A program made the position numbers and the translations under genes. A stretch of 61,050 nt of DNA from Gammaproteobacteria bacterium (GTDB lineage Bacteria > Pseudomonadota > Gammaproteobacteria > UBA9214): NCBI GenBank assembly GCA_022340485.1, contig JAJDNX010000123.1:1-61050 (forward strand). Direction: 5' to 3'. Below are positions 5,715 to 15,661 of this stretch, in pieces (position 1 is the stretch's first letter; each line of letters opens with the position of its first letter). Below the pieces are notes generated by a model, which made no database searches, was not told where the DNA came from, and worked only from the letters and a program-made list of their open reading frames with translations.

Positions 5715-7436
5715 ATGACTGAGCGTATTGTTGTTGACCCGATTACCCGTATCGAGGGTCACCTGCGTATCGAGGCGCAGATGGATGGTGACCGTATTGC
5801 GCAAGCCTATTCTGCCGGCACCATGGTGCGCGGTATCGAGATTATCCTGCGTGGCCGTGACCCGCGGGATGCCTGGGCCTTTGCGCAGCGCATCTGTGGC
5901 GTGTGCACGCTGGTACACGGACTGGCGTCCATTCGTGCCGTCGAAAATGCACTGAACTACCCGATCCCGCCCAATGCGCAGCTGATTCGTAATCTGATGA
6001 ACGGTGCGCAGTATGTGCATGATCACGTCATGCATTTCTATCATCTGCATGCCCTGGACTGGGTCGACGTGGTATCGGCGCTGAAAGCCGATCCCGCGGC
6101 CACCGCAACGCTGGCACAGTCACTCAGCAATTATCCGAGATCCTCGCCGGGTTATTTTTCTGACGTACAGAAGAAGTTGAAGAACTTTGTCGAGTCGGGC
6201 CAGCTGGGTATCTTTGCCAATGGCTACTGGGGGCACCCGGCCTACAAGCTGCCACCGGAGGCAAACCTGATGGCCGTGGCACATTACCTGGAGGCGCTTG
6301 CTTGGCAGCGAGACGTGGCCAAGCTGCATGCTATCTTTGGAGGCAAGAACCCGCACCCGAATTTCCTGGTCGGGGGGGTCGCCTGCCCGATTGACCTGAA
6401 TTCCGATTCGGCGATCAATGCCGAGCGCCTGGCAAAGGTGCAGGAAATCATCACCCAGATGCAGTCTTTTGTCGACCAGGTCTATATCCCTGACCTGCTG
6501 GCCATCGCCGGTTTCTACAAGGACTGGGGTGCACGCGGTGAAGGGCTGGGCAATTTCCTCACCTTTGGTGATTTCCCGGAAAAGGGGATGGACGATCCGT
6601 CCAGTTACCTGATTCCATCCGGCGCGATCCTGAATCGGGATCTGTCGACCATCCACGATGTCGATATGAACGCAGCCGATGAAATCCAGGAATACGTCTC
6701 ACACTCCTGGTATGACTACAATGGCGGCAAGGAACAGGGGCTGCATCCCTATGACGGCGAGACCCGTCTCAATTACAGCGGACCCACGCCACCGTATGAG
6801 CAGCTGGACGTGGAGCAGTCCTATTCATGGCTGAAGTCACCACGCTGGAAAGGCCATGCCATGGAGGTCGGGCCGCTGGCACGGGTACTGATGCTGTATG
6901 CCAGTGGAAACGAGCAGGCGCAGGAGCTGGTCAAGATGACGCTGAGCACGCTCGATGTTCCTGTGGATGCGCTGTTTTCAACGCTTGGTCGCACCGCCGC
7001 ACGCGGACTCGAGACCAAGATTGTCTGTGACATGATGCAGACCTGGTACAACCAACTGGTGGCCAATATCAAGGCCGGCGATACCAAAACCCATAATGAA
7101 GCCCTCTGGGACCCGTCAACGTGGCCGCAGCAGGCGAAGGGTGTCGGCTTCATGGAGGCACCACGTGGGGCGCTGGCTCACTGGATCGTCATTGAGGAAG
7201 GCAACATCAAGAACTACCAGGCAGTGGTCCCCAGTACCTGGAATGCCGGTCCGCGTGACCAGCAAGGACAGCCAGGTGCCTATGAGGCGGCCTTGCAGGA
7301 CAACCATACCCTGGTTGATCCAAAACAGCCGATCGAGATTCTGCGCACCATCCACAGTTTCGATCCCTGCATTGCCTGCGCGGTGCACGTAACCGACCCG
7401 GAGGGTGAGGAACTGATCAAGGTGAAAGTGCGTTAA
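5715..7436 (+). CDS. hynL: [NiFe]-hydrogenase large subunit (group 1e, Isp type)
   Basis: DPITRIEGH; L1 RICGVC; L2 DPCIACAVH followed by a cleavable C-terminal tail. Confidence 0.97.
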   Translation: MTERIVVDPITRIEGHLRIEAQMDGDRIAQAYSAGTMVRGIEIILRGRDPRDAWAFAQRICGVCTLVHGLASIRAVENALNYPIPPNAQLIRNLMNGAQYVHDHVMHFYHLHALDWVDVVSALKADPAATATLAQSLSNYPRSSPGYFSDVQKKLKNFVESGQLGIFANGYWGHPAYKLPPEANLMAVAHYLEALAWQRDVAKLHAIFGGKNPHPNFLVGGVACPIDLNSDSAINAERLAKVQEIITQMQSFVDQVYIPDLLAIAGFYKDWGARGEGLGNFLTFGDFPEKGMDDPSSYLIPSGAILNRDLSTIHDVDMNAADEIQEYVSHSWYDYNGGKEQGLHPYDGETRLNYSGPTPPYEQLDVEQSYSWLKSPRWKGHAMEVGPLARVLMLYASGNEQAQELVKMTLSTLDVPVDALFSTLGRTAARGLETKIVCDMMQTWYNQLVANIKAGDTKTHNEALWDPSTWPQQAKGVGFMEAPRGALAHWIVIEEGNIKNYQAVVPSTWNAGPRDQQGQPGAYEAALQDNHTLVDPKQPIEILRTIHSFDPCIACAVHVTDPEGEELIKVKVR

Positions 7437-8059: not shown

Positions 8060-8563
8060 ATGAGCGACAACACATGCACCGATATGGATGTCAGCGCGGC
8101 TGCCATCAAGGCATCTCCCCTGGGTGAGGAACTCAGCGATGCACAGTGCGAGTTGCTGGCAAGTGTCATGACCGCCTGTGGGATCAAGGACCAGGCTTTC
8201 CTTATCGAGGAAAATCAGAAGGATGACTGCCTGCATGTCCTGACCTCAGGGAATATGGAGGTCGTGACACATGCTGCCCACGGTGAGTTGGTCGGTCTGC
8301 AGATTCTCCGTGCAGGTGACATCCTCGGTGAGCTGGGTTTTCTGGATGGTGTGGAGCATTCAGCCAGTGTGCGTGCAATGGGTAATTGCGAGCTGTTGAG
8401 ACTGGACCGCACCAGTTTCGAGAGCTTGCTGGAGAAAGACCCGGATCTTGTCTACAAGGTCATGCGCGCCATTGTCCGAACCGTGCATCGCATCCTGCGC
8501 AACATGAATTTCCAGCAGGTCGAGCTGACCAACTATATCGCCAAGATGAACGGGCGCTACTAG
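8060..8563 (+). CDS. Stand-alone cyclic-nucleotide-binding domain protein
   Basis: GDILGELGFLDG..HSASVRA cNMP fold signature; no HTH. Confidence 0.85.
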   Translation: MSDNTCTDMDVSAAAIKASPLGEELSDAQCELLASVMTACGIKDQAFLIEENQKDDCLHVLTSGNMEVVTHAAHGELVGLQILRAGDILGELGFLDGVEHSASVRAMGNCELLRLDRTSFESLLEKDPDLVYKVMRAIVRTVHRILRNMNFQQVELTNYIAKMNGRY

Positions 8564-8728: not shown

Positions 8729-9919
8729 ATGCATATGCACAAACAGCCAGTAGGGTATACCGGTGCTGCGATCCTGAACCTCGGTTTTCGACCGTTCTTT
8801 GCCGGTGCCGCAATTTTCTCGGTGCTGTCCATGCTGTACTGGATGGCTGTCTATGTACTCGCTTGGCACTGGCAAACGGCGCTGCCGGCTTCAACCTGGC
8901 ATGCACACGAGATGGTCTACGGCTATGGCATGGCGGTGATTGCCGGCTTTCTGTTGACGGCCGTGCGCAACTGGACCGGTGTACAGACATTGCATGGAAT
9001 ACCACTGTTGCTGCTGTTTCTGCTGTGGCTTGCAGCGCGTCTGCTGCTGCTTGGAGATGCCGCTATCCTGAAATGGGCGGCAATGGCGGATGTCCTTTTC
9101 AACGCCCTGCTGGTGGCCGCGCTTGCCTGGCCCATTTTCAAGGTACGACAGTTCAAACAGCTTGGCATCCTTTCCAAGGTGCTGCTGCTGATGCTTGCCA
9201 ACCTGCTGTTCTATGCCGGTGTGCTGGAAATATCCCCCTGGGGTGTACACGCCGGTCTGTATTCGGGGGTCTATCTTGTCCTGGCGCTGATCTTTGTCAT
9301 GTCGCGTCGGGTAATCCCCTTCTTCATTGAGCGCGGGCTCGATCAGGCGGTCACGCTGAGGAACCGTGACTGGCTGGATGCGGCCAGCCTGTTGCTGTTT
9401 ATCGGCTTCTGGCTTGCCGACATTGCATGGCCGGACTCACTGCCGGTGGCGGTGCTTGCCGGGACGCTGTGTGTGCTGCACGGTATCCGGCTCACCGGCT
9501 GGTATGCCGCAGGTATCTGGTCAAGGCCACTGCTGTGGGTGTTGTTTCTTGCCTATGCGGCCGTGATTGTCGGCTTTGCCCTCAAGGTGGCGGTGTACGT
9601 GTTGGCTATTTCGCCCTTCCTGCCTCTGCACGCCTTTACTGTTGGCGGGATCGGCCTGTTTACCATGGGCATGATGGCGCGGGTAACACTCGGGCATACC
9701 GGCAGGGATGTCCTCCAGCCGCCGTCACAGGTGTCGTGGATGTTTGCATTGCTGCTGGTCAGCAGCATCGTCCGGGTCGGGTTGCCATGGCTTGATACGG
9801 CACACTACGTATACTGGATCGGTCTGTCGCAGCTCTTGTGGATCCTTGCCTTTACCCTGTTCCTGTGGGTGTTCCTGCCCATGCTGTACCGGCCGCGCAC
9901 CGATGGCCAGTTTGGTTGA
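8729..9919 (+). CDS. nnrS: NnrS family membrane protein (NO stress)
   Basis: LGFRPFF, WHAHEMVYGY, FLLTAVRNWTG, RVTLGHTGR motifs. Confidence 0.93.
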   Translation: MHMHKQPVGYTGAAILNLGFRPFFAGAAIFSVLSMLYWMAVYVLAWHWQTALPASTWHAHEMVYGYGMAVIAGFLLTAVRNWTGVQTLHGIPLLLLFLLWLAARLLLLGDAAILKWAAMADVLFNALLVAALAWPIFKVRQFKQLGILSKVLLLMLANLLFYAGVLEISPWGVHAGLYSGVYLVLALIFVMSRRVIPFFIERGLDQAVTLRNRDWLDAASLLLFIGFWLADIAWPDSLPVAVLAGTLCVLHGIRLTGWYAAGIWSRPLLWVLFLAYAAVIVGFALKVAVYVLAISPFLPLHAFTVGGIGLFTMGMMARVTLGHTGRDVLQPPSQVSWMFALLLVSSIVRVGLPWLDTAHYVYWIGLSQLLWILAFTLFLWVFLPMLYRPRTDGQFG

Positions 9920-10725: not shown

Positions 10726-11190
10726 GTGCCGCTATGGGCATTTTTTCACAGCGTGAACTGCACGCAGTTACCATCCCTTGTCATGGTTGCACTGGCTGTA
10801 CTGATTGGTATCGGTGGCTGTGCCAGTCCGGCAAAGCGACCGCTGCTGTACCCCAACGACCACCTGAATGAAGTCGGTCAACAGGCTGCGCAGCAGGACA
10901 TCAATGCCTGTATGGCACTTGCACGTACCTCGAACGTGAATGAGAACAAGGACGGTGAGGCAGGGCGCAAGGCCGCCGGTGGGGCTGCGATCGGAGGGGC
11001 CTCTGCAGCTGCCTGGGGACTGGTGAGCGGTGGCAGTGTCGGTAATCGTGCCCTGGCCGGTGCCGCGGCGGGTGCCACAGCGGGTGCAGTAAGTGGCGGC
11101 CTGCAATCGACGGAGACCTCACCGCTGTTCATGAATTTCGTCAACAAGTGCCTGTCGGACAAGGGCTACAGTGTGGTCGGCTGGCAATAG
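10726..11190 (+). CDS. Glycine-zipper lipoprotein
   Basis: Lipobox IGGC; [15 protein letters not shown] zipper; CLSDKGYSVVGWQ end. Start may be 10783. Confidence 0.75.
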   Translation: MPLWAFFHSVNCTQLPSLVMVALAVLIGIGGCASPAKRPLLYPNDHLNEVGQQAAQQDINACMALARTSNVNENKDGEAGRKAAGGAAIGGASAAAWGLVSGGSVGNRALAGAAAGATAGAVSGGLQSTETSPLFMNFVNKCLSDKGYSVVGWQ

Positions 11191-11250
11191 TATGGATAGG
11201 GAGCGTGTGCCACGTTATCCCCGTCTGCGGTAGCCTTTCTGAATTTAGGC

Positions 11251-11604
11251 ATGTTAACAGGAACGCTCTTTTCTGGTATGGATCCGAGTATCGAAGATAT
11301 CTGGCAGGGTATCTGGTGGACCTGGGTAACAGTAGCGACGGCAGGGTATGGCGATGTCGTGCCACAAAGTGCTGCGGGCAAGGTGTGCGGGGCGATCGTG
11401 ATCATGTTTGGTGCTGGTTTTTTCTCCCTGCTGACTGCCAGCTTTTCGACCTACTTTATTTCGCGTGGCGAGGTGGAGATCGGGTAGGAGGAGGCCAAGG
11501 AGATCTATCGCCTGAGGGATATCGAAAGGCGCATTCAGTTCATGGAGGAGGCGCTGCAGCGGATCGAGGCGGTTTTGAATAAAGACCGGGATTCGACAGC
11601 ATAG
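11251..11604 (+). pseudogene. KcsA-like 2TM potassium channel remnant with in-frame TAG
   Basis: WWTWVTVATAGYGDVVP pore; TAG at 11485-11487, then frame continues as coiled-coil-like EEAKEIYRLRDIERRIQFMEEALQRIE to 11604; upstream in-frame stop at 11197 shortens TM1. Confidence 0.65.
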
Positions 11605-11641
11605 CCTGGGCAAACGTTGTGCCTTGATCGCGCGGATTGCG

Positions 11642-11853
11642 TTATCCACAAAGTCTGTGGATAACTCTGTGGATGAATTGTTGTCAATTGCACCAAATCC
11701 CTATTTTTCCCTGTTTGGCGTTAAATTGATCAAATTTTATCCACAGCAAATTATTTATAACAATCAATTGCTTAAGTATATTAGAAGACTGTAAATTACT
11801 GTATTCTATGGTTCTGCAAGACAAAAAAATCACCAAAACAGGGCTGTGTATAA
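11642..11853. promoter_or_regulatory. DnaA-box cluster with IHF and Fis-like sites (DARS-like element)
   Basis: TTATCCACA 11642-11650, TGTGGATAA 11656-11664, TGTGGATGA 11668-11676, TTATCCACA 11737-11745, TGTGTATAA 11845-11853; IHF consensus 11762-11774; AT-rich and non-coding. Confidence 0.75.
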
Positions 11854-12038
11854 GACACGGGTCTATACGGGAATCTACTAACAAGCCGGTCAATCCGGCA
11901 GGCCCGGTTGGGGCCCATTGTCGTGTTGACTTCCACCACAGACAGGCCTTATTTCATCTTTTAGACCGCCTCCAGGTGTGGCTAATCACGCGACGTTGCA
12001 GGGATATTTACTATCCGCTGTGAATTTTCTTGCAGTTG

Positions 12039-12052
12039 TTAATCTGCATCAA
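12039..12052. promoter_or_regulatory. FNR/DNR-like box
   Basis: TTAAT-CTGC-ATCAA (1 mismatch), about 70 nt upstream of the 12123 ORF. Confidence 0.55.
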
Positions 12053-12122
12053 CACAACGCTGTGTGGTTCCCGCTAGAATCACAAATGGTCAAAAGAGAC
12101 CCTGAAACAGGAGGATCTGAAC

Positions 12123-12356
12123 ATGAACACCCGGCATGCAGAAGTTACCTTTCATATCGATGAAGAGACATCACACGATGAGCGTGAAAGGTTCCGTGAT
12201 GTTCTGCTCGCAATGGACGGTGTGATGGCGGCTTCGTATCACGATGAAAAACCCCATCTAATGCTGATTGAATACAACCCGGAGGTCATCAAATCCATAG
12301 AGTTTGTGAACGCCGCGAAAAAGCATGGTTTGCATGCTGAATTGATTGGCTTCTAG
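12123..12356 (+). CDS. Small HMA/ferredoxin-fold-like protein lacking CxxC
   Basis: AGGAGG RBS; beta-alpha-beta pattern (DGVMAA..IEYNPE..GLHAELIG); His-rich. Confidence 0.7.
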   Translation: MNTRHAEVTFHIDEETSHDERERFRDVLLAMDGVMAASYHDEKPHLMLIEYNPEVIKSIEFVNAAKKHGLHAELIGF

Positions 12357-12434
12357 CACCCACTGATCTACAGAACCGCACCTCTACCAGGCTGATCGAG
12401 GTACAGTCAAGAGAGCGCCTTTATCCTGGAGCGG

Positions 12435-13097
12435 TTACTGCCAGGGGACCAGCTCGACATCGAGACATAACTGTACCGTTTCGCTGACGAAGAAGCGGTA
12501 GCTGTTCATGTTGAAACTGGTACGCTGGACCTGGCCCCTGCCCTGCAGCAGGATGCGTGCAGGGCGCTCCTCCTCACCGTCTTCCAGTGGACGTAACGCG
12601 AGGCTGAAAGTAACCGGCTGGGTTACACCGTGCAGGGTGAGGTCACCATGAATGTGACCCTCGGTATTATTCAACCAGTGTGCGGTGTGTCCCACGAACA
12701 GGATCTCGGGGTAGTGGCTGGCGTCAAAGAAATCCTGCCCGGTCACCAACGGCAGCAGGGTGGTATTCTCTGACGACAGGCTGGCGGTGCGGATGAGCAA
12801 CAGTGCCTGCCCATGCTGTGCCGACAGCGGTGGAAAAACAAGGCCACCTATAATGTTGGTGAACTCACCGCGGAACTCCTGTCCGGGAAAATGCCGTACA
12901 CAGAACCCAACCTTCGACGCCTGCGGATCGACCCGGTAGAGTCGCCCGTTACTCGCTGCCTCCCGCATGATTTGCAGTAAACCCGGGTCAACCCGCCCCC
13001 CTTCGAATGGGGTGCAGGGCTGGTCGGCCATGGCAGGTCCGAGCGCCAGGGCAAGTGCAAACAGCAGGACGGTTTTCAGCATTTCAGTTATGAACAC
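12435..13097 (-). CDS. YceI family periplasmic lipid/isoprenoid-binding protein
   Basis: YRVDPQASKVGF, FFDASHYPEILF, GDLTLHGVTQPVTF motifs; signal peptide. Confidence 0.88.
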   Translation of the reverse strand: MFITEMLKTVLLFALALALGPAMADQPCTPFEGGRVDPGLLQIMREAASNGRLYRVDPQASKVGFCVRHFPGQEFRGEFTNIIGGLVFPPLSAQHGQALLLIRTASLSSENTTLLPLVTGQDFFDASHYPEILFVGHTAHWLNNTEGHIHGDLTLHGVTQPVTFSLALRPLEDGEEERPARILLQGRGQVQRTSFNMNSYRFFVSETVQLCLDVELVPWQ

Positions 13098-14986: not shown

Positions 14987-15661
14987 CTAGCCCAGTGTCT
15001 GGATGTCCTTGATATGAATCAGGTTGCCTTCGGCGACGATATGTCCCTCGCGCTGCAGGTTGCGCAGGATGCGCGAGAAGGATTCTGGCTGGATGGAGAG
15101 GCGCGAGGCAATCACATGCTTGGGAGCGCCCAGTTTGACGGTCACTTCATGTTGCGCCCCCGCCGGCACCTGGTGGAGCAGGTAGTTGGTAAAACGCAGC
15201 GTGGCATTTTGCAAGGTCAGTGCGTCGATGTCTGCGAGCTGCCGCTTCAGCCAGGTGCTCATGTCGGCCATCAGCCGGAAGCAGGTGTCGGTTGAGTCCC
15301 GCAAGATGGCGCGGAAGGTATTGTTGGAAAAGGCCAGCAATTCACAGGCGTCAAGGGCACTGGCATTGACCGGGTAGACCTGGCCCTCCATGAAGGTGAT
15401 GGCCTCGGCAAAGGTTTCGCCGGCCGTGATCAGGTGTATCACCTTTTCAGTTCCGTCGGGCGCTGACAGGTACAGCCGAATCGTGCCACTGCGCACCATG
15501 AAAAACTGCCGGGCTTGCTGCTGGGCATGAAACAGCAGTTGACCATCACCGAGGTGGATGAGCTGTGCAGTTTCCAACAACAACGCCAGCTGCCGGTCAT
15601 CCAGTCCGCCGAACAGCGGATGACGGCGCAGTTCTCCGGGCAGGATCTTGCTCGCATTCAT
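14987..15661 (-). CDS. dnr: Crp/Fnr family regulator, DNR type
   Basis: GETFAEA sensor domain; IASRLSIQPESFSR HTH with ExxSR; no FNR N-terminal Cys cluster; next to nor/nir. Confidence 0.82.
   Translation of the reverse strand: MNASKILPGELRRHPLFGGLDDRQLALLLETAQLIHLGDGQLLFHAQQQARQFFMVRSGTIRLYLSAPDGTEKVIHLITAGETFAEAITFMEGQVYPVNASALDACELLAFSNNTFRAILRDSTDTCFRLMADMSTWLKRQLADIDALTLQNATLRFTNYLLHQVPAGAQHEVTVKLGAPKHVIASRLSIQPESFSRILRNLQREGHIVAEGNLIHIKDIQTLG

Follow-up and report, generated by a model that had tools for sequence, protein, structure and literature searches.

What role does a tight cluster of DnaA boxes play in a non-coding, AT-rich gap of a gammaproteobacterial genome, on a contig other than the one that carries dnaA? 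The DNA analysed here is a stretch of 61,050 nucleotides, hereafter the window, and the cluster occupies 212 bp of it, at 11642..11853. The original prediction, made from the letters alone, took this cluster for a DARS2-type DnaA-reactivating element and named datA-like and oriC roles as alternatives. Our analysis indicates that the element is a real, selected DnaA-binding module of DARS type, with binding predicted from its sites, and that it is not an origin. The best reading of its function is that of a DARS2-like DnaA-recycling site, acting by DARS-like nucleotide recycling, to which we assign, by analogy with E. coli, a probability of about 0.55. To our knowledge, E. coli is the only species in which chromosomal DARS sites have been shown to recycle DnaA.

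Anatomy of the cluster and geometry of its core

The whole DARS-type module (11642..11853) comprises a triad of DnaA boxes, a Fis site overlapping a fourth box, an IHF site, an AT-rich spacer and a fifth box, and is defined by motif scan, alignments and positional conservation; strands are given for the boxes and the IHF site. Box I (TTATCCACA, 11642..11650, plus strand) and box II (TGTGGATAA, 11656..11664, which is TTATCCACA on the minus strand) are both perfect and oppose each other across 5 bp. Box III (TGTGGATGA, 11668..11676, or TCATCCACA on the minus strand) has one mismatch and follows box II in tandem after a 3-bp gap. Next comes a block reading CCTATTTTT (11700..11708), which is part of the genus consensus, common to the genus copies, and has no function assigned to it. 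A second block, GTTAAATTG (11720..11728), is identical at offset +78..+86 in all three copies of the host genome; its TTG is kept class-wide and forms the left edge of the predicted Fis site (GATCAAATTTTATCC, consensus GNNYRNNWNNYRNNC, 11728..11742). This Fis consensus overlaps by 6 bp the perfect box IV (TTATCCACA, 11737..11745, plus strand), which is kept in most genus copies and is degenerate in the host copies on contigs C72 and C159 and in other families. The AT-rich spacer between boxes IV and V (11746..11844) includes an A-run before box V and contains the predicted IHF site, an exact match to the consensus (AATCAATTGCTTA, consensus WATCAANNNNTTR, 11762..11774, plus strand), at +120 from box I. 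Box V (TGTGTATAA, 11845..11853, or TTATACACA on the minus strand), with one mismatch, closes the module at +203.

The GC content drops to 32.1% over 11642-11853, against 56.7% for the window, and is 31% over 11677-11844. A reading frame is open across the whole module in only 1 of 29 related copies, and both strand and frame vary between copies, so that the non-coding, AT-rich island of the original prediction stands and a small protein, for which no frame is conserved among the related copies, is rejected. An Rfam scan of 11000-13000 with E-values up to 1 returned only a chance miRNA match elsewhere in that interval. The module is, in short, invisible to gene annotation.

A motif scan recovered all of the predicted motifs in their places: the five boxes, the Fis consensus and the exact IHF consensus. 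Boxes with at most one mismatch number 17 in the window against 9.55 ± 3.06 expected, a count reached by 2 of 100 shuffles, and five of the 17 fall within these 212 bp. A genome-wide count of similar clusters, proposed along with the prediction, ranks the element as the densest in the 2.77-Mb assembly, with five boxes per 300 bp; the next three clusters hold four. The Fis consensus has 121 matches in the window against 146 expected, and the IHF consensus 2 against 1.06, which makes a single match to either uninformative alone. The weight of the Fis and IHF matches comes from the conservation of their positions, presented below, and not from match quality.

The core triad was compared directly with the two chromosomal DARS sites of E. 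coli MG1655. In both DARS1 (bioD-uvrB; L006, boxes at 1108/1122/1134) and DARS2 (rppH-mutH; L007, boxes at 1636/1650/1662), the boxes start at +0 (plus), +14 (minus) and +26 (minus). The window triad has the same orientations, the same 5-bp gap separating box I from box II and the same 3-bp gap between boxes II and III. The spacing of 5 and 3 bp that the original prediction gave for DARS1 is therefore correct on MG1655 DNA and holds for DARS2 too. DARS1, whose core geometry is identical to that of the window triad, is not known to require IHF or Fis. The opposed orientation of boxes I and II across a 5-bp space, and the conservation of the spaces in DARS candidates, are also described in the literature (PMC6868365). 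The element thus has what defines a DARS core: three boxes, the first two opposed and the third oriented as the second, in non-coding DNA distinct from oriC.

Beyond the three-box core, E. coli DARS2 shares with the element a regulatory arm carrying sites for IHF and Fis, a non-coding setting and a location outside oriC. Some 200 bp from the core, both have one more DnaA box, at +211 in E. coli and at +203 here, although the two are opposite in orientation: the E. coli box is forward and the window box reverse. A DnaA box overlaps or adjoins the Fis region of DARS2 as described in PMC8682772, as box IV does here. The arrangement of the sites differs. In E. coli the order is core, IHF (+93 and +109) and Fis (+145), with the essential Fis site beyond IHF and IHF about midway between core and Fis, whereas in the window the order is core, Fis (+86), IHF (+120) and box (+203), with the Fis consensus between core and IHF. 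The core boxes also differ in quality, being near-perfect in the window and degenerate in E. coli, where boxes I and III are imperfect. Alignment of the element to E. coli DARS1 and DARS2 gave no convincing homology beyond the core, recovering just the core and, in loose alignment, an IHF site. An identity of 11 nt (TTGGCGTTAAA) with the DARS1 flank, offset by 11 bp, was spotted by eye and is given no weight here.

Copies in the host, its relatives and the class

The full triad, TTATCCACA-N5-TGTGGATAA-N3-TGTGGATGA (27 specified bases), occurs three times in the 2.77-Mb host genome (G000). The second copy (C72:11738-11772, reverse; L003/L030) lies between a SLOG-family (cpYpsA/SLOG) gene and a SulP transporter gene. 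The third (C159:6892-6926, reverse; L004/L035) lies in the pntB-priA spacer, 111 nt upstream of priA. Box IV and the IHF site are more degenerate in these two copies than in the window copy. Common to all three are GTTAAATTG at about +78, a T-run at about +63, a box or box remnant at +95 and a reverse box at about +203; the T-run reads CCTATTTTT in the window copy (C28) and on C159, and GTGTTTTT on C72. Judged from these shared features, the element is one of three paralogous modules in the host genome. Synteny with bioD-uvrB (DARS1) or mutH-rppH (DARS2) is absent at all three.

Copies syntenic with that of the window are present in two related genomes, G012 and G014, and align with it without gaps over 11642-11880 at a three-way identity of 64%. 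The identity is highest in the triad (91%), the most conserved part of the module, and reaches 89% in box V and 60% in the spacer between boxes IV and V. It is 59% in a tail beyond box V (TATACGGGAA.CTAC, 11854..11880) that is kept only in these yceI-linked copies of G000, G012 and G014, and the flanks have 20%, 27% and 6%. On the box I side, at 273-332 nt, G012 and G014 carry a divergent secreted-protein gene that reads away from box I; in its place, G000 has a decayed K+ channel gene reading towards the module. The left neighbour has been replaced in G000 and yet the module is kept; the conservation of the module is therefore independent of its neighbour gene, and the module has outlived it.

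Several minor features of this neighbourhood were recorded. The remains of the channel gene (10726-11604, plus strand) include a pore fragment (Ion_trans_2, 11251-11487), and their frame is broken by stops at 11188-11190, 11197-11199 and 11485-11487. On the other side, the stretch between the module and yceI (11881-12430) is largely absent from G012 and G014; it includes an ORF of 77 aa (12123-12356) that matched no family and, at 11977-11985, a sixth DnaA box, which has one mismatch. The genes of the wider window include a NiFe hydrogenase large subunit, NnrS and two CRP/FNR-type regulators (5715-7436, 8729-9919, 8060-8563, 14987-15661).

With up to two mismatches allowed, the triad was found in 16 of the 18 further genomes that represent the genus and, outside the family, in 4 of 12, and a reversed control pattern had 0 matches in the same 31 genomes. 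The neighbours of the 29 related loci are priA at 18, yceI at 3 (the window, G012 and G014), sulP at 1 and none of the query proteins at 7. At the same tolerance, the triad is present in 175 of 401 genomes of a family-balanced sample of the class (173/399 without the unpublished genomes G313 and G159), against 0/401 for the reversed control, and many of these genomes have two or three copies. The class figure is a lower bound, because the DARS cores of E. coli itself would fail the triad filter.

The accessory sites were found to be locked in position relative to the triad. An exact-pattern scan, with one genome per species, gave at least 120 named loci, and the architecture was counted in offsets from box I at 110 of the loci listed, those with enough flank. 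In 71 of the 110 listed loci (28 of 39 priA-linked, 43 of 71 others), an IHF consensus that has no more than one mismatch starts at +110..+130, with 70 of the matches at +119..+122; the controls gave 1/110 at the mirrored offset and 0/110 at +210..+230. In 70 of the 110, a DnaA box in reverse orientation, again with one mismatch at most, lies at +180..+230, with a peak at +203..+206 (control, 1/110). The Fis consensus stands at exactly +86 in 45 of these listed loci, where the mean is 0.26 loci per position. The conserved columns, TTG at +84..+86, AAATTTT at +90..+96 and CA at +100..+101, coincide with the specified positions and the A/T-rich centre of the Fis consensus. Among the 29 copies from relatives, the Fis consensus is found at +85..+87 in 16, and the IHF consensus (at most one mismatch) at +119..+121 in 17. 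The window copy matches the template offsets base for base (+86, +120 and +203). The IHF and Fis matches of the original prediction thus lie at offsets that are conserved across the class.

Location, neighbouring genes and alternative roles

An oriC, or a secondary or cryptic replication origin, would share the composition and motif content of the element, since DnaA boxes, an IHF site and AT-rich DNA are origin-like, and the rank of the element as the densest DnaA box cluster of the assembly would also suit it. The location argues the other way. GC skew has the same sign on both sides of the site (+0.048 left, +0.050 right) and keeps its sign at the C159 copy too; it switches from -0.046 to +0.034 at rpmH-dnaA-dnaN-recF-gyrB on contig C38. 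There, at the skew switch, the 205-bp dnaA-dnaN spacer (C38:39767-39971 = L005 9767-9971) contains four DnaA boxes and an AT-rich tail, and is likely the oriC of the host genome. The skew switch, which the original prediction had named as the mark of an origin, is therefore found at dnaA and not at the element. The description of the site as far from dnaA holds insofar as dnaA is on another contig, but in a draft that places the two on separate contigs the distance can be bounded only from below, at about 31 kb. The module is also present in three copies per genome, whereas oriC is unique in the chromosome, and neither Dam nor SeqA was found in the 93%-complete assembly. In the single-contig genome G030, the cumulative skew minimum (2.13-2.16 Mb) is near dnaA (2.109 Mb) and the triad is at 1.984 Mb, in a profile that is noisy and weakly informative. 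An oriC role is rejected, largely refuted by skew and copy number, and an origin of any kind is highly improbable here.

A datA-like or purely titrating DnaA sink deserves closer attention. Such a sink would use the boxes and the IHF site to hold DnaA or to promote DnaA-ATP hydrolysis, and would thereby be a negative regulator whose dosage rises on its replication. All boxes are high-affinity, as would suit it, and the DnaA residue Gln208 discussed below is not conserved. Moreover, copies in relatives lie 89-134 kb from dnaA in G030, G002, G008 and G029, and 114 kb from it in G036; the early duplication of copies near dnaA would suit a brake. E. coli datA resembles the element in being a cluster of DnaA boxes that lies outside oriC and has one essential IHF site (PMC10950094). 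Its boxes 7, 2 and 3 surround IHF and support an ATP-DnaA oligomer, and the position of the IHF site between boxes IV and V is loosely like the datA order of box 2, IBS and box 3. The box-IHF-box spacings, however, measure 25 and 83 bp in the element and 65 and 97 bp in datA, and the boxes are oriented differently. More importantly, datA, which promotes ATP hydrolysis, is without a head-to-head 5-bp pair followed by a 3-bp tandem box, while this triad is the most conserved part of the module. The distance between triad and dnaA also varies: in 9 single-contig genomes (treated as circular) it amounts to between 3.7% and 50% of the chromosome, and a fixed distance is rejected on these values. 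We consider the sink unlikely, although it retains appreciable weight.

Two further systems were compared with the element. Bacillus subtilis has several non-origin DnaA-box clusters (DBCs) per chromosome that modulate initiation, as described in a 2026 review (PMC13220808), and a passage of this review gives DARS and datA as absent from that species. The DBCs act by titration, lack a defined triad geometry and involve neither IHF nor Fis. The first DARS to be described lies in the origin of a ColE1 plasmid, as a 70-bp element with three DnaA boxes (PMC5835720), which we liken to the module by description and not by geometry. This precedent, and the match of the triad alone to two plasmid records, might suggest that the module is the remnant of a plasmid or mobile-element replication region. 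The matches are limited, however, to the 31-32-nt core, with nothing for the rest of the 241-nt query; the positions of the module are syntenic across genera, and its flanking genes include no mobile genes. A plasmid origin is rejected on the core-only matches, and a remnant of this sort is barely credible.

The genes next to the module raise the question of transcriptional control. The commonest copy is the one upstream of priA: in 56 of 59 priA-linked loci (41 named among L041-L160, matches listed, and 18 among L008-L036), priA starts within 600 nt of box I, at a median of 114.5 nt, and is transcribed away from the module. A literature search for DnaA boxes upstream of priA found no paper. 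E. coli DARS1 and DARS2 themselves sit in the promoter regions of the repair genes uvrB and mutH, as reported in PMC5835720, and the DARS1 position, at a DNA repair/replication gene (uvrB), is a parallel to the priA-linked copies. The module could accordingly be read as a promoter region controlled by DnaA, IHF and Fis, in which the triad would be an operator coupling the neighbour gene, priA in the ancestral copy, to the DnaA level; the G012 and G014 copies, 273-332 nt before a divergent secreted-protein gene, fit such a role. The window copy, however, has no gene to control. On its box I side no gene departs, and the neighbours read towards the module, while the sole ORF on the other side (12123-12356) lies 270 bp past box V in a region absent from relatives. 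Promoter-like sites are at chance level (2 against 1.2 ± 1.2 expected), terminators likewise are not above shuffles, and the 212-bp module adjoins genes as unrelated as priA, yceI, sulP, hemW, xseA and engB. A promoter role in place of DARS activity is improbable; it could coexist with DARS activity instead of replacing it, and a second role in gene control is possible for the priA-linked copies.

The non-priA named loci (L042-L122; 55 loci, 100 of 144 flank ORFs scanned) adjoin a HemW-like radical-SAM gene at 16, where citrate synthase is often alongside (11 loci). They adjoin xseA at 6, 4 of those with exbB, in records named Betaproteobacteria, an M48 peptidase at 6 and an EngB-like GTPase at 4.

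Proposed recycling mechanism, host proteins and distribution

Under the DARS2-like recycling reading, a sequence of events can be proposed by analogy with E. coli DARS2. ADP-DnaA would assemble on the triad, where the head-to-head pair would loosen the bound ADP; apo-DnaA would then depart and rebind ATP. Fis and IHF would bend the DNA, and a U-turn at IHF would bring box V and its DnaA back to the triad. This bending would make the activity dependent on growth phase and cell cycle. DnaA at box IV would compete with Fis and provide a negative feedback like that of E. coli DARS2, at which competition between ATP-DnaA and Fis has been demonstrated (PMC8682772).

The host assembly encodes Fis (downstream of dusB; NF001659, 102.8 bits at a cut-off of 99), IHF alpha, IHF beta and Hda; the host Fis is 50% identical to E. 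coli Fis and the host DnaA 64% identical to E. coli DnaA. The host differs from that of E. coli DARS2 in having no detected Dam or SeqA, an absence that fits the non-enteric host of the original prediction, and RuBisCO large-subunit fragments at two contig ends (C5 and C89) agree with its description as an autotroph. It also differs in DnaA itself. DARS-dependent ADP release in E. coli needs Gln208, according to PMC6868365, and in the host DnaA Ala189 aligns with this residue. In 15 triad-bearing genomes this position is Gln in 3, Ala in 7, Ser in 2, and Gly, Thr or Val in a single genome each, and it is the single variable residue of its helix. By contrast with position 208, the residues that make up the modelled head-to-head interface (L290, V211, L214, Q215, F239 and K243) are invariant or nearly so in the same 15 genomes, and V211, L214, Q215, F239, K243, D269, R285 and L290 are all conserved in the host. 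The position equivalent to Gln68 of Fis, a residue reported to contact DnaA (PMC11724364), is Asn in the host. The substitutions of Gln208 and of Fis Gln68 are the main points against a strict E. coli mechanism.

The arguments can be set side by side. The DARS reading draws support from the MG1655 core geometry, the spread of the triad against the reversed control and the position-locked accessory sites. Further support comes from the 64% identity of the module against 6-27% in its flanks, the evidence that the site is not oriC, the presence of genes for Fis, IHF and Hda, and the conserved interface residues of DnaA, as well as from the DnaA box that overlaps the Fis site, as in the competition at E. 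coli DARS2, and from the promoter setting that the priA-linked copy has in common with E. coli DARS1 and DARS2. Against it stand the absent Gln208, a site order unlike that of E. coli DARS2, Asn in place of Fis Gln68, and the lack of uvrB/mutH synteny and of flank homology. That all three core boxes are near-perfect could, in addition, favour stable titration over turnover. The DARS2-type label of the original prediction holds for the core geometry, for IHF and Fis matches at class-conserved positions and for the non-origin status of the site, and it does not extend to the order of the sites or to Gln208.

The conservation of DARS has been described for species called 'E. coli-proximal', at syntenic positions, in Shigella, Erwinia, Yersinia, Photorhabdus, Rahnella, Vibrio and Shewanella (PMC8682772, PMC4245941, PMC5742627). 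Our search of the literature on DARS-like sites found only Vibrio cholerae, at the E. coli positions; Fujimitsu et al. 2009 or Supplementary Figure S10A of Kasho et al. 2014 (PMC4245941) may already list non-enteric candidates. What the present analysis adds is that about 44% of the genomes in a family-balanced class sample carry the triad, accompanied by Fis, IHF and DnaA sites in a fixed arrangement of its own. It also adds the presence of the module in lineages without detected Dam or SeqA and without Gln208, and new, positionally conserved loci, above all upstream of priA. Cultured carriers of the module, such as the Dyella strains among the named matches, make it testable how general the control of initiation through the DnaA nucleotide state is, and which parts of the E. 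coli mechanism are essential.

We also put forward, tentatively and with more doubt than confidence, a broader hypothesis. The 212-bp arrangement might be the ancestral and widespread form of DARS in Gammaproteobacteria, including the former Betaproteobacteria, present in one to three copies per genome, with a preference for promoters of genes that act in replication restart and repair (here priA and xseA, in E. coli uvrB and mutH). Besides recycling ADP-DnaA, it would make the expression of these genes depend on the initiator's state, without Dam, SeqA or DnaA Gln208, and E. coli DARS1 and DARS2 would be derived, rearranged forms.

Among the matches listed, nearly all of the at least 120 loci are in records named Gammaproteobacteria or Betaproteobacteria. 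Among the lineages represented in these matches are Lysobacterales/Dyella, Woeseiaceae, Chromatiales, Ectothiorhodospiraceae, Thiothrix, Methylococcaceae, Rhodocyclaceae, Nitrosomonas and Duganella. Three further records with exact triads (L050, L091 and L145) bear the titles Candidatus Planktophila lacus, where a HemN-like gene adjoins the triad, Natronospirales and Sphingomonadaceae, and these could reflect binning contamination, gene transfer or independent origin. In a few genomes the triad is found in tandem, with the two copies 325-380 bp apart (G197:C19:216008 and 216333; G341:C206:51221 and 51546; G342:C209:4937 and 5317) or about 2 kb apart (G046:C1:924325 and 926329; G258:C17:199522 and 201360).
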